Positions 15,748 to 41,671 of a DNA stretch of 64,000 nucleotides are shown here, piece by piece. The position numbers and the translations under genes were made by a program. How positions within the stretch are numbered: the first letter of the stretch is position 1; every line of letters starts with the position of its first letter. The notes under the pieces were generated by a model, which saw only the letters and a list, made by a program, of their open reading frames with translations, was not told the DNA's origin and did not search any database. The stretch comes from a virus (lineage: Duplodnaviria > Caudoviricetes): positions 64,001 to 128,000 of the IMG/VR virus record IMGVR_UViG_3300049182_000044; one strand, written 5' to 3'.

Positions 15748-15823
15748 GGGGCGTTAACTCAGTTGGTAGAGTAGCGGACTCTTAATCCGTTTGTCGTAAG
15801 TTCGATCCTTACACGCCCTACCA
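15748..15823 (+). tRNA. tRNA-Lys(CTT)
   Basis: 76-nt cloverleaf, GCGGA-CT-CTT-AA-TCCGT anticodon arm, TTCGATC T loop, encoded CCA. Confidence 0.95.
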
Positions 15824-15881
15824 AAGTTTCCATAGTAGTGCAGATGCGCGAAAGCGAGTTCTTACTTCTGCATTACTCACC

Positions 15882-15957
15882 GGGTCGTTAGCTCAGTCGG
15901 TAGAGCAGCGGACTTTTAATCCGTTGGTCGCGTGTTCGAGTCACGCACGGCCTACCA
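15882..15957 (+). tRNA. tRNA-Lys(TTT)
   Basis: 76-nt cloverleaf, GCGGA-CT-TTT-AA-TCCGT, encoded CCA. Confidence 0.95.
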
Positions 15958-16111
15958 AGTTTGTCGTAGTAAAGAGTTGTAACTGCCATGTGGGTGGGTA
16001 CCTGCATGTTGTCGTAAGAATGGCCAAAAAGCCGGACCTCAATTTGTGCGAGTCGAAAGGCTCTCACCAGTGTAGACAGTCCTTACAGGGGATCGCAGTT
16101 AGCTGTTACGT

Positions 16112-16187
16112 GGGGCGTTAGCTCAGTTGGGAGAGCAGCGAACTTTTAATCCGTTGGTCGCTGGTTCAAACCCAGCACGCCCTACCA
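16112..16187 (+). tRNA. tRNA-Lys(TTT), variant with A30:C40 mismatch
   Basis: 76-nt cloverleaf, GCGAA-CT-TTT-AA-TCCGT, TTCAAAC T loop, encoded CCA. Confidence 0.85.
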
Positions 16188-16205: not shown

Positions 16206-16409
16206 ATGTCCAATGAGTACAAGATTGCAACCTACAGCTTCGCTGTAGCAGAAGCAGTACGCGTGGTCTTCAATCACGAAAAGATTCCGTTTGAAAGCGC
16301 AGTCGGTGCGGGTTCGGTGATCGTCATCCTTGTACCCATGGAGCATAAGGCTACCGCACAGAACGTGCTACGTCAATGGAAGTCCGCCATAGCGCAGATT
16401 CAGATTTAA
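16206..16409 (+). CDS. Small hypothetical protein between RNA genes
   Basis: 67-aa ORF filling the gap between tRNA and tRNA-like RNA. Confidence 0.55.
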   Translation: MSNEYKIATYSFAVAEAVRVVFNHEKIPFESAVGAGSVIVILVPMEHKATAQNVLRQWKSAIAQIQI

Positions 16410-16410
16410 C

Positions 16411-16539
16411 GCGGGTATCGTCGAAGGTATGGCTATCGTAGTAAAGGCGTACAGTCATGTGCGTCTACATGGGGCAACTTAACAGTTGCAGCTACGACGT
16501 TCCCATGTTTCGTGAGTTCAAGTCTCACTACCCGCACCA
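16411..16539 (+). ncRNA. tRNA-shaped RNA A (129 nt), anticodon arm replaced by a structured insert
   Basis: Acceptor GCGGGTA/TACCCGC plus A-CCA, D arm GTCG-AAGGTA-TGGC, T arm GTGAG-TTCAAGT-CTCAC. Confidence 0.7.
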
Positions 16540-16654
16540 CTCCCTTATAAGAGAAAAAGAAATGGGAATCAAAGGCTACGTGATTGCCTGTGCAATCGCT
16601 TCATTGCTCGTCGCCGTGATCGCCACATCTAATTTGTTGACGATGCAGTAACAA

Positions 16655-17333: not shown

Positions 17334-17506
17334 GGCGGGGTATGCATATTGGAGTAGCTGCGATTGACCGAACCGTGGAGTCCTAGGGTCGGTGAGGTCG
17401 TCGTGGTCGAGTTGGGAACAAGCACTTTGGGAGGTCGGGTAACGTGCTCGATTGAACATTGTGACTCCGACTCGGCGTGAAAGTTCGATCCTTTCCCCTG
17501 CTGCCA
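17334..17506 (+). ncRNA. tRNA-shaped RNA B (173 nt) with greatly extended anticodon-position and variable arms
   Basis: Acceptor GGCGGGG/CCCTGCT (two G:U) plus G-CCA, T arm GAAAG-TTCGATC-CTTTC, two long internal helices. Confidence 0.6.
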
Positions 17507-17587: not shown

Positions 17588-17675
17588 CGGGGCGAGGGAG
17601 TAAGAACGTGTTGACTGTGATGCGCTATGCTAAATGGTCAATAAGGTGCAGGTTGAAACCCTGTCGGCCCGACCA
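17588..17675 (+). ncRNA. Degenerate tRNA-like element C (Pro-like acceptor); 5' end uncertain, could be 17514
   Basis: 3' end GCAGG-TTGAAAC-CCTGT-CGGCCCG-A-CCA; 5' CGGGGCG pairs with one G:G mismatch; no canonical anticodon arm. Confidence 0.35.
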
Positions 17676-19181: not shown

Positions 19182-19189
19182 TACAGAAT

Positions 19190-19580
19190 TTATGGTTGTG
19201 TGCGTAGCGTAATCTACGCGAGACGTTTGCGTGAAGGCATGGCGGACGGGAGTTCGATTCTCCCCACCTCCACCACCAGCACTTTGAACACCCGGTGATG
19301 GCCGGGAGTTTGACCATGTAGGGTAACGGCCCCATAGCAGCCGCTACAGGACCAGTTGCGATACAACTGCAAAGCGCTGTTGATGGGGGTGACCTGGTTT
19401 CGACGGCGTGAGATAGCAAGAACTACAACTCAGCAGGCGATCGCTGACTCTTCGGAGTGAATCGAAGCAAAAATAGTAAATGCAAACGACTCGCATTTCC
19501 TGCAAGCTGCAAACGCCTAATTAAGCGTTTCACTTCAGGCTAAGTGACTACGGGGTCTGTTGACATAGCGCTACGGCGCG
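19190..19580 (+). ncRNA. ssrA: Circularly permuted (two-piece) tmRNA
   Basis: Acceptor piece ends GGAC-GGGAG-TTCGATT-CTCCC-CACCTCC-A-CCA (19275); coding piece starts GGGGGTG (19385), G3:U70 present; tag GCA AAC GAC...TAA at 19482-19520 = ANDSHFLQAANA; outer boundaries approximate. Confidence 0.9.
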
Positions 19581-19589
19581 CCGTCTTCG

Positions 19590-20035
19590 TGTACGTAGTT
19601 AGTCCGGCCACTCCACCTTTCGCCGATAATGACGCGACTGCGCGTGGGTGTCTTAGTCAGCGCGTAAGCGCACCGAAGCCGGACTACCCAGTTTCAAACC
19701 TCCAAGGTCAGAGAGCACTACACAGTGAGTTCGGTCTAAACTTTAACCATTTAGTCACCGAGAGACGATTTCCGTTATAGCAATCTGGATCGGACAACAG
19801 CCTGTGCAGCCAAAGGAGGGCCCAACGTAAAACGTTCTTCATCGAGCGTTTTACGTTGGTGACGGCAAAGCCGTTAAGGTGCGGACATAGAGCTATTGCA
19901 GCTTCAGCGTGGGTACGAACACTAATCGCATGGAGGAACCCCACCGGCGATGAAGTCGTAGGATGTGAAAGCCCGCTACGCTGTCACCAACATTCTCAAA
20001 TCGCGACCTAAGGTGGTCCCGATCATTCAACTTTA
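19590..20035 (+). ncRNA. Candidate large structured ncRNA, copy 2 (boundaries approximate)
   Basis: TAGTCCGGC/GCCGGACTA helix, 16-bp hairpin CCAACGTAAAACGTTC/GAGCGTTTTACGTTGG, core shared with copy 1. Confidence 0.6.
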
Positions 20036-25889: not shown

Positions 25890-25908
25890 GGTCATCGAAT
25901 CGAATCAT

Positions 25909-26556
25909 TGAGTCGTGGTGACACGACATTGTGCATCTGCGTAAAATGCGTTGGTAGTCAATATGGACCGGATGAGGCCAAAAGCCGTTGATCCCGATTC
26001 AGGATGTTTGGCGTAACGACGCAACCGAAAGGCGTATAAAACATTAGCCCTAGCCAGTGCGGTACTTAAGTGGACGGCTGCTAGCGCATAATGGATGAAT
26101 GTTATCAAATTCGGCGAAAGCTAAGCTCTCCGGTAGTAACGTTTCCGGGTCACAGGTACCTCAAACGGTCCATACGCTTCGGGCTTGTCCCTTGCGCACA
26201 CCTACCTAAACAGCCACCGAGCAGTGACTGCTGAGTATGCCAACGCCGAGCCAAGCCTAGAACGATAGTCACAGGTAATCCTTCATAGCGACGACGCCTA
26301 AGGCAGTCAAGCGTAGAAGCGACACCACGGTGAATGTCCGATTAGGAAGGTGTAGAGACTGGTAGGTAACCACCGTAACAGCTGCTTTAACTTATGGGCG
26401 TGTCCCAACTCCGAACGCGACGGAGGTGAAGCAGCAGGTGAAGGCACAGTCCGGGCCATCAACGGTATGCGACACTAATCGAGGCCGGCCTTGTAAATGG
26501 GTCGGTGTACTCGAAATAGCTATTACCGCGTATAGGCGGCGAAAGCCGTGGTGGTG
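25909..26556 (+). mobile_element. Group I intron, Azoarcus/IC3-like
   Basis: Core matches Azoarcus intron: TCAAATTCGGCGAAA.CTAAGC, AACGCCGAGCCAAGC, GAAGGTGTAGAGACT, GGTGAAGGCA.AGTCC; P3 GTTATC/GGTAAC; P9.0 GCCATC/GGTGGT; P9 GCGGC-GAAA-GCCGT; omega-G 26556. The 5' splice site (P1 ATCAT/GTGGT) is less certain. Confidence 0.85.
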
Positions 26557-27054
26557 AGAATACGATTCGACTCTTATTTTATAGACATGAAACGCTCAGA
26601 ACTACAAGCCTTACTACGTGAAGAGTGTAATCCCAACATAGTGCTAGCTACGGTTGGCTCTTGCTGGGAGTGCTCTTCACATAGTCGAAACGGTGGATAC
26701 TACTTCATTTATGAATTTTCTTCTAAGAAGAAAGTTCTGTTGCATCGACTAGCCTACAAGTTAGTCAAAGGAAAGATTCCAAAAGGCCACGTGATTCGGC
26801 ATCGTTGCGATAATCGTGGGTGTTTGAAGCCTAGCCATTTGATTAGCGGAACCGTCGGTGACAACAACCGAGACATGGTAGAACGAGGTAGGCAAGCTCG
26901 TGGCGAACGCAACCGCCACGCTAGGCTGACTGAAGCTCAAGCTCGAGAAATAAAGTATTCCAAGGAATCGAACAAGGTACTGCGTGAACGCTTCAACGTG
27001 CACCGCAATCTTGTGACAGGTATCCGTAACGGTACCTACTGGAAACATATTTAA
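26548..27054 (+). CDS. HNH (His-Me finger) homing-type endonuclease with C-terminal HTH; alternative start 26587
   Basis: CWEC, LHRLAYKL..G.IPKG.VIRHRCDNRGCLKPSHL..GT..DNNRDM..RGR, ARLTEAQAREI. Confidence 0.9.
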   Translation: MVVRIRFDSYFIDMKRSELQALLREECNPNIVLATVGSCWECSSHSRNGGYYFIYEFSSKKKVLLHRLAYKLVKGKIPKGHVIRHRCDNRGCLKPSHLISGTVGDNNRDMVERGRQARGERNRHARLTEAQAREIKYSKESNKVLRERFNVHRNLVTGIRNGTYWKHI

Positions 27055-41006: not shown

Positions 41007-41130
41007 GTGGAACGTGCCTGAGAGGCCGAAGGGTGACCACACAAGACGCCGACCGAGACCGTGATGGGGTCAGTTCATGTTTAGTGCATGGGCAGCGGAG
41101 GCGTCGCGGGTTCAAATCCCGCCGTTCCAC
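41007..41130 (+). ncRNA. tRNA-shaped RNA D (124 nt) upstream of queD
   Basis: Acceptor GTGGAACG/CGTTCCAC, class II-type D arm CCT-GAGAGGCCGAA-GGG, T arm GCGGG-TTCAAAT-CCCGC; no anticodon arm, no encoded CCA. Confidence 0.65.
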
Positions 41131-41170
41131 TTCTTCAATTCCCCTTCCAAAATTCTTCACAAAAGCCAGC

Positions 41171-41671
41171 ATGAACGATATTACCAAACAGATGATGGAC
41201 GATCAAAACCCGAATCGTCCGTATTTCCTTTCGACCAAGACCTACGGCAACGAGCGCGGCTACTCCGTGGCGTATCGCCAGTGGAGGGCAGACACTCATT
41301 GCAACCTGATCCACGGCTATGCCTTGGGCTTCCATTTCGAGTTCAAGTGCTATGATCTCGATGCTCGTAACTGGTGTGTTGACTTCGGTGGCCTTCGTAC
41401 TCTGAAGGAATGCATGGACGATTGGTTCGATCACACCTGTCTCGTTGCACAAGATGATCCTGAGTTCAAGACATTCGAGGACCTCCACAATCGCAAGATG
41501 ATCAAGATGACAGTGGTCGAACGTACTGGCTGCGAAGGTCTAGCCAAATGGCTTTCCGACTACATCAATGAAATCTGGATTCCGGAGAACGGCTACAAAG
41601 GACGCGTAACGCTTCATAAAGTCGAAGTGCGAGAGACTGGAGCTAACTCTGCTATGTATGTCATGCCCTAA
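41171..41671 (+). CDS. queD: 6-carboxy-tetrahydropterin synthase (QueD/PTPS family)
   Basis: STKTYG, AYRQWRA.THCNLIHGY, NWCVDFGGL, FDHT.LVAQDDP, VEVRET..NSA.Y. Confidence 0.88.
   Translation: MNDITKQMMDDQNPNRPYFLSTKTYGNERGYSVAYRQWRADTHCNLIHGYALGFHFEFKCYDLDARNWCVDFGGLRTLKECMDDWFDHTCLVAQDDPEFKTFEDLHNRKMIKMTVVERTGCEGLAKWLSDYINEIWIPENGYKGRVTLHKVEVRETGANSAMYVMP

Follow-up and report, generated by a model that had tools for sequence, protein, structure and literature searches.

The phage record IMGVR_UViG_3300049182_000044 is 281,566 bp in length and is estimated to be complete; it encodes a tail sheath and comes from the DNA of a soil metagenome run. The window analyzed here is the 64,000-nucleotide stretch formed by bases 64001-128000 of this record. 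The phage was placed among uncultured jumbo phages that form a large clade, its tail sheath being 53-87% identical to theirs. Three tRNA-Lys genes (CUU, UUU and UUU) lie at window positions 15748-16187, and the 281-kb genome has no other canonical tRNA. Their cluster ends with a gene of 129 nt on the + strand (16411-16539), designated RNA A, in which position p corresponds to window position 16410+p. A sequence-only reading had described this gene as a tRNA-shaped RNA of 129 nt with a perfect 7-bp acceptor stem, A73-CCA, a GG-containing D loop and a canonical T arm, and each of these elements was found in the sequence of 16411-16539. RNA A and the two small open reading frames (ORFs) beside it contain the following features:

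16206..16409, + strand, upstream ORF of 67 aa; its stop codon ends 1 nt before G1 of RNA A
16411..16417, + strand, acceptor stem 5' strand GCGGGUA; 7/7 Watson-Crick pairs, pairing probability 0.86-1.0, in the Rfam tRNA alignment
16420..16433, + strand, D arm GUC(G)/(U)GGC with a GG-containing loop; from the Rfam tRNA model alignment
16436..16441, + strand, helix X 5' strand UCGUAG, located where the 5' strand of an anticodon stem would be; exact complement of 16492-16497
16445..16466, + strand, hairpin H1 of 9 bp with a GUCA tetraloop; in the minimum free energy (MFE) and centroid folds, probability 0.92-1.0
16467..16473, + strand, helix Y 5' strand ACAUGGG; 7 bp, exact complement of 16502-16508, in the MFE and centroid folds, probability 0.65-0.76
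16474..16489, + strand, hairpin H2 of 6 bp with a UAAC loop; probability 0.83-0.99
16492..16497, + strand, helix X 3' strand CUACGA; 6 bp with 16436-16441
16498..16511, + strand, 14-nt "variable region" without internal complement; its centre, 16502-16508, is the helix Y 3' strand
16512..16528, + strand, T arm GUGAG-UUCAAGU-CUCAC; 5-bp stem with 5/5 Watson-Crick pairs and a UUCRANY loop, in the MFE fold and the Rfam alignment
16529..16535, + strand, acceptor stem 3' strand UACCCGC; pairs with 16411-16417, in the MFE fold and the Rfam tRNA alignment
16536..16539, + strand, discriminator A73 and encoded CCA (ACCA); read from the sequence
16562..16651, + strand, downstream hydrophobic small ORF of 29 aa; it has a purine-rich leader and begins 22 nt past the CCA

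A 9.4-kb Logan contig covers 15902-17700 with 0 differences; this contig represents a second assembler applied to the same run and not an independent sample. The middle tRNA-Lys gene showed a very high contig depth, recruited from other organisms in the same run. ARAGORN and Rfam both identified a two-piece (permuted) tmRNA gene at 19183-19611, 2.6 kb downstream of RNA A, with a score of 98.5 bits and the tag ANDSHFLQAANA. This permuted tmRNA is kept in relatives (L092:1-256 and G003 157215-157601). Assemblies of the relatives tend to end within the RNA island that surrounds it.

RNA A has the general features of a tRNA at both of its ends: acceptor stem, discriminator, 3' CCA, T arm and the GG of the D loop are all present, and the three tRNA-Lys genes of its cluster encode ACCA too. 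When both strands of the 281.6-kb genome were scanned strictly for an acceptor stem combined with a T arm, four matches were obtained, namely two of the tRNA-Lys genes, RNA A and an element at 41008-41133. As no more than these four were present genome-wide, the shell of RNA A is not due to chance. Pairing of the D stem is weak, with 3-4 bp of which two are G-U and a pairing probability of 0.1 in the thermodynamic ensemble, and the D loop has 8 nt compared with 10-11 nt in normal tRNA-Leu genes; the short loop and weak stem could impair the elbow and recognition by LeuRS. For RNase P and the 3' tRNA nucleases, the acceptor/T-arm stack, the elbow and CCA are sufficient. Because these parts are intact, RNA A should be excised like its tRNA-Lys neighbours, and the earlier suggestion that its ends are suited to RNase P and 3' tRNA processing agrees with the intact acceptor, T arm and encoded CCA.

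Comparison with other phage genes indicates that the shell is of the leucine type. The last 28 nt of RNA A (T arm, acceptor 3' strand and ACCA) occur exactly in three IMG/VR contigs, and in two of the three they belong to an ordinary 87-nt tRNA-Leu(GAG) gene whose first 8 nt are also as in RNA A; the tRNA-Leu(GAG) of L002 has the same last 28 and first 8 nt. The shell gave no indication of the host: among 301 genomes sampled from the class, a single one contains the exact 28-mer, and its sole copy lies in the oversize gene itself. Weak BLAST matches to the 3' end of RNA A were mostly phage tRNA-Leu genes. In two related jumbo phages, the Dda-type helicase shared with the present phage has a normal tRNA-Leu(GAG) upstream of it, in the corresponding genome region, and the acceptor strands of the relatives' tRNA-Leu(GAG) genes (GCGAGUA or GCGGAUA) are one compensated pair away from the GCGGGUA of RNA A. 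ARAGORN found no normal tRNA-Leu in the phage that carries RNA A. Based on the identity of the shell, the tRNA-Leu(GAG) genes of the relatives and the lack of a normal tRNA-Leu here, RNA A most likely descends from the tRNA-Leu of its phage lineage. It shares the acceptor family, A73-CCA and T arm with the canonical tRNA-Leu(GAG) genes (L002:4074-4160, L134:1200-1286 and L136:9659-9743), whereas it has neither an anticodon stem-loop nor a self-paired variable arm, has a shortened D loop and is 42-44 nt longer.

The 78 nt that separate the D arm from the T arm contain the two hairpins H1 and H2 and the two helices X and Y. No similarity was detected when this interior was aligned with those of the normal phage tRNA-Leu(GAG) genes. 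Both core hairpins proposed from the letters alone were recovered in the MFE fold, H1 with 9 bp and H2 with 6 bp. This fold (-48.4 kcal/mol, z = -3.8) includes the acceptor, T arm, H1, H2 and Y, and none of 200 dinucleotide shuffles was as stable. The two crossing complementary helices that had also been proposed are exact (6 bp for X and 7 bp for Y) and have no bases in common; each added alone to the shell with H1 and H2, X contributes -4.1 kcal/mol and Y -7.6 kcal/mol. When only the interior was shuffled and the shell kept (5000 dinucleotide shuffles, with search windows set post hoc after the helices had been seen), an X of at least 6 bp was found in 2.8% of shuffles, a Y of at least 7 bp in 1.6% and both together in 1/5000. 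On the basis of thermodynamics and this shuffle test, the crossing X and Y helices are predicted to form a putative pseudoknot.

RNA A does not have the self-paired long variable arm of a leucine tRNA: normal relatives of its shell have a self-paired 15-nt arm at the place where its 14-nt variable region pairs with the insert through helix Y. As the variable region pairs into the insert, we argue that the interior has been rebuilt and not simply interrupted. The leucine type of the shell and this pairing of the variable region both go beyond what the sequence-only reading had observed. That reading had recorded the lack of a 7-nt anticodon loop, and this holds: the possible registers of H1 and H2 give only even loops of 4, 6 or 8 nt, and an anticodon stem closing a 7-nt loop with U33 is absent in any register. 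The loop of H2 reads CUUAAC, which recalls a Leu-UAA loop, and its size is 6 or 8 nt, never 7.

Standard gene finders do not report RNA A, as had been expected. It was not called by ARAGORN in default mode, and it was reported neither in an Rfam run at gathering thresholds nor in an E-value run on 4.5 kb. With lax filters on 171 nt, the Rfam tRNA model RF00005 gave 29.3 bits against a threshold of 29; the alignment spans model positions 1-71 through the acceptor, D and T arms, with 68 nt inserted at the anticodon arm. Among other structured RNAs, no Rfam match up to E = 10 was obtained on RNA A for hammerhead, twister, pistol, hatchet or hairpin ribozymes, and none for Intron_gpI. The insert is 45-50 nt in length. 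Group I introns are about 200 nt or more and contain a P3-P9 catalytic core. A self-splicing group I intron was accordingly rejected, since the insert is far too short and matches no Rfam intron, in line with the earlier claim on its length. A protein-spliced (bulge-helix-bulge) intron was also rejected: inspection of the sequence revealed no such motif, and no Pfam-model match to RtcB, an Rnl2-type RNA ligase or a tRNA-splicing endonuclease was found in the phage.

These results bear on the possibility that RNA A is a tRNA with a short intron, in which some host or phage activity would remove about 45 nt to give a decoding tRNA. With introns allowed, ARAGORN is forced to a tRNA-Cys(GCA) with a 45-nt intron and with helix X as the anticodon stem. 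Precedents for oversized tRNA genes exist in otherwise perfect tRNA-Leu genes with 27-46-nt hairpins in the anticodon loop (L143, the L144 family and L159 of Thalassobaculum litoreum) and in the Lak megaphages, whose tRNAs carry "enigmatic introns" that Rfam cannot classify (Devoto et al. 2019, PMC6784885). Lak tRNAs and RNA A are both oversized genes of huge phages with inserts not classified by Rfam; however, from the published description, which is the sole basis of this comparison, removal of a Lak insert leaves a recognizable tRNA with an anticodon, and this is not so for RNA A. We consider a removable intron very unlikely for several further reasons. First, the 7-nt loops that splicing could produce read GCA, ACA or AAA (Cys or Phe) and never leucine, on a body with A73. 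Bacterial CysRS requires U73, so a Cys anticodon is senseless on this body, and a spliced RNA A would mis-insert leucine. Second, the whole interior and not the loop alone differs from tRNA-Leu, and the 14-nt variable region cannot fold by itself and pairs with the supposed intron. Third, an ARAGORN deletion scan called hundreds of deletions with many anticodons, controls behaving likewise, so that the calls are inconsistent and no product is preferred. To these are added the short insert, the lack of a Rfam ribozyme match or bulge-helix-bulge, and the lack of detectable splicing and ligation enzymes in the phage. The earlier description of RNA A as tRNA-shaped and non-decoding is thus upheld, as the Rfam tRNA model aligns its shell and a tRNA produced from it by splicing would be senseless.

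Elsewhere in the window, a candidate group I intron was noted at 25890-26575, which Rfam supported only weakly (19 bits over 26057-26434). The short sequences that flank it form a hairpin with a CAU-containing loop, like the relic of a tRNA anticodon arm. The mini-exons of this group I-like intron (~25.9-26.6 kb) are unrelated to helix X of RNA A.

Orthologs of RNA A were sought in several ways. In a set of 50,697 phage records, BLAST with RNA A and with its 5-kb surroundings matched tRNA-like ends only. A covariance model, which the sequence-only reading had proposed as a check, was built on RNA A and run together with BLAST on 21 IMG/VR relatives and eight Logan/ENA loci; all matches were ordinary tRNAs, and no ortholog was returned. 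A degenerate pattern for an oversize Leu shell, run on viral, metagenome and genome collections, revealed no gene like RNA A, and turned up other, unrelated oversize tRNA-Leu genes. The proteins flanking RNA A are orphans or have weak homologues on short contigs without the RNA. For the 67-aa ORF, only six weak homologues were identified among 1.8 billion representatives, and no RNA followed the homologue in either of the two that were looked up. The contigs of the closest relatives (75-76% helicase identity) break off within the RNA island, L092 beginning in the tmRNA and L091 in a tRNA, and do not show the orthologous place. RNA A is therefore a singleton among the relatives and collections searched, and a full-text literature search found no paper describing it.

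A singleton of this kind could be a dead tRNA-Leu(GAG) whose middle was replaced through illegitimate recombination or insertion, leaving a neutral scar that has not yet decayed. The relatives carry an intact tRNA-Leu(GAG) instead, the D arm of RNA A is weakened, and broken or duplicated tRNA-Leu genes do exist (L156, L158, L160 and L164, with internal duplications and att-type half copies), all of which speaks for such a scar. However, the shell is undamaged, with full Watson-Crick pairing in the acceptor (7/7) and the T stem (5/5), a T loop of canonical form and ACCA encoded in the gene; none of the 200 shuffles matched the interior in stability; and two long-range helices, one of them re-using the variable region, are unlikely to have arisen by chance. 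Furthermore, at least two other oversize tRNA-like genes of the phage are conserved in relatives with compensatory changes. We therefore regard a neutral scar as unlikely, while giving it serious weight.

The first of these two genes, at 41008-41133, is 126 nt in length, has a Tyr/Ser-type D arm and no encoded CCA, and lies in the gap ahead of an ORF that starts near 41172. A 143-nt ortholog is located upstream of the tail sheath gene at L089:7923-8065 (sheath identity 78%); compared with 41008-41133, it has G-C in place of U1-A72, U-A in place of a C-G pair of the T stem, and a 17-nt interior indel. The second, at 17334-17506, is 173 nt in length and has an acceptor stem with G-U pairs, a GCCA end and a canonical T arm, and two long arms replace its anticodon and variable arms. 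Its 191-nt ortholog, at L135:1266-1456, lies upstream of the helicase and has A-U where the 173-nt element has G-C, at two pairs of the acceptor and one of the T stem. In both ortholog pairs, the interiors have diverged far more than the shells. The compensatory stem changes in these two elements indicate that the class of oversize tRNA-like genes is maintained under selection in this phage lineage.

Also within the island, an 88-nt stretch at 17588-17675 has a fold z of -2.3 and overlaps the start of a 149-aa ORF at 17634.

The position of RNA A between two small ORFs suggests another role. No promoter- or terminator-like site was found between the tRNA cluster and the 29-aa ORF, so that RNA A is likely co-transcribed with the tRNA cluster and this ORF, as far as sequence signals can indicate. 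RNA A could then be a cis-acting processing signal ("tRNA punctuation") that brings in RNase P and 3' nucleases to cut the polycistron between the 67-aa and 29-aa ORFs or protects the 3' end of the upstream mRNA, the released RNA having no role of its own. The lack of promoter- or terminator-like sites nearby, the tight spacing (1 nt from the stop codon of the 67-aa ORF to G1, and 22 nt from CCA to the next ORF) and the repeated occurrence of tRNA-like ends along the 5-kb RNA island are consistent with punctuation. A minihelix of acceptor and T arm would suffice for this purpose, however, and the 78-nt interior with its long-range helices is left unexplained; the neighbouring tRNA-Lys genes already supply processing sites as well. 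Punctuation alone is thus considered improbable.

Non-decoding, stable tRNA-like RNAs in phage tRNA clusters have been known since T4 species 1 RNA. This RNA (rnaC; NC_000866 70908-71046, 139 nt) is the closest known RNA to RNA A. Like the 129-nt RNA A, it lies in a phage tRNA cluster, has a canonical T arm (CCGGG-UUCGAAU-CCCGG) beside a stem formed by its 5' and 3' ends, and folds with two long arms at the D/anticodon and variable places and without an anticodon loop. In contrast to RNA A, it has no CCA end and its terminal stem has few pairs (in an MFE fold of the annotated rnaC); the perfect 7-bp acceptor, ACCA, D arm and crossing helices are particular to RNA A. No sequence similarity between the two was detected by BLAST, and the likeness is one of architecture only. 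RNA A shows the three features by which rnaC-like RNAs may be recognized (location in a tRNA cluster, a terminal stem with T arm, and no anticodon loop), with the provision that no formal family model exists for such phage tRNA-cluster RNAs. RNA A is thus a sequence-unique variant of a known but unexplained kind of phage RNA; the role of rnaC itself is still unknown (PMC3014915).

Other bacterial tRNA mimics, the skipping-rope family and its relatives, are described in a 2026 preprint, and an Rfam search of RNA A gave no match to this family or its relatives. RNA A was compared with two further kinds of mimic, tmRNA and the YrlA-type Y RNAs. The tRNA-like domain of tmRNA and the YrlA-type Y RNAs are non-decoding tRNA mimics that use the acceptor/T-arm stack and the elbow. 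In tmRNA, pseudoknots lie beside the tRNA-like domain and G3-U70 is the alanine identity pair. RNA A differs from tmRNA in having G3-C70 and no tag reading frame, and it does not match the tmRNA model; the only tmRNA placed in the window by ARAGORN and Rfam is that at 19183-19611. It differs from the Y RNAs in having no match to YrlA (RF02553), the sole weak YrlA match lying on the tRNA-Lys genes, and no Ro60/TROVE gene was found in the phage.

Taken together, these observations lead us to tentatively prefer, at close to but below an even chance, the reading that RNA A is a phage gene derived from tRNA-Leu whose product is a processed, non-decoding, tRNA-shaped RNA that acts through its shell. 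RNA A, the tRNA-Lys genes and the small ORFs would form a single transcription unit on the + strand. Cleavage at G1 by host RNase P, followed by trimming to the encoded CCA by host tRNA 3' nucleases, would let the product accumulate as a stable RNA of ~129 nt. Its shell would then occupy some factor, of the host or of the phage, by which the top half of tRNA is read. The functions put forward in the sequence-only reading, a decoy for tRNA nucleases, RelA or EF-Tu or the delivery of a cargo, are hypothetical. Candidate partners are LeuRS, EF-Tu (if RNA A is charged) and a tRNA-directed toxin or defence enzyme. LeuRS of E. coli needs A73 and the elbow and ignores the anticodon. No class I aminoacyl-tRNA synthetase domain, L/F-transferase or CCA enzyme was found in the phage. 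The pseudoknotted interior may provide rigidity, nuclease resistance or a second binding surface.

A more specific proposal, which we consider quite unlikely as it stands, is that RNA A is one unit of a "translation-protection island" that neutralizes a factor attacking or sensing the acceptor/T-arm half of tRNA. The island would consist of the three tRNA-Lys genes, the two-piece tmRNA and several anticodon-less tRNA mimics, and RNA A would act either charged with leucine or by binding as an uncharged mimic. Its target might be an acceptor-end nuclease, a nucleotidyltransferase or acetyltransferase toxin, or a sensor of the stringent response, and the pseudoknot between variable region and insert would bar use on the ribosome and resist anticodon nucleases. 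Beside its true tRNAs and tmRNA, this phage holds at least three or four non-decoding tRNA-like genes. RNA A is a clean case among them, as the leucine tRNA shell is kept while its decoding half has been rebuilt throughout. Should RNAs of this type be decoys or carriers, they would add a new layer to the control that phages exert on host translation or defence; RNA A, being a singleton, is a good candidate for study and not a discovery.

The other oversize Leu-type genes turned up by the pattern scans are, unlike RNA A, otherwise perfect tRNA-Leu genes with a hairpin placed in either the anticodon or the D loop. A near-identical tRNA-Leu family found in phage tRNA arrays (L144-L150, L152, L154 and L157) is 133 nt in length (132 nt in L152) and carries a structured 46-nt insert in the anticodon loop with the flanks CUU...AAAA; removal of this insert after U34 would give Leu-UAA. 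L143 (119 nt), from another phage, has a 32-nt analogue of the insert, and ARAGORN called none of the four oversize genes given to it (L143-L145 and L149). L151:1460-1593 and L162:1920-2052 encode a tRNA-Leu(CAG) with a D-loop insert of ~48 nt, the hairpin of which differs between the two by compensatory changes. In L155:149-267, a metagenome Leu-type shell, a long, near-perfect, UUCG-capped hairpin takes the place of the anticodon arm and there is no anticodon. The tRNA-Leu-type gene at L159:4246-4360 of Thalassobaculum litoreum DSM 18839 (Rfam tRNA, 40.7 bits) shares its acceptor and T arm with RNA A, and its anticodon loop carries a hairpin insert of ~27-32 nt; nowhere else in this genome does the 28-nt 3' end of RNA A occur.

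Unusual tRNAs were also observed in the related 286-kb phage G003. At one or the other of its loci 158456-158530 and 162155-162239 is a tRNA with an 8-nt anticodon loop and the four-base anticodon UGCA, and these loci also include an 85-nt tRNA-Thr(UGU) whose long variable arm is class II-like. Finally, at a distance of a few kb downstream of the helicase, relatives encode proteins of the Acb2/Tad1-hairpin family of anti-CBASS/Thoeris sponges (L091:10115-10444, L093:3982-4323 and L135:8950-9303).
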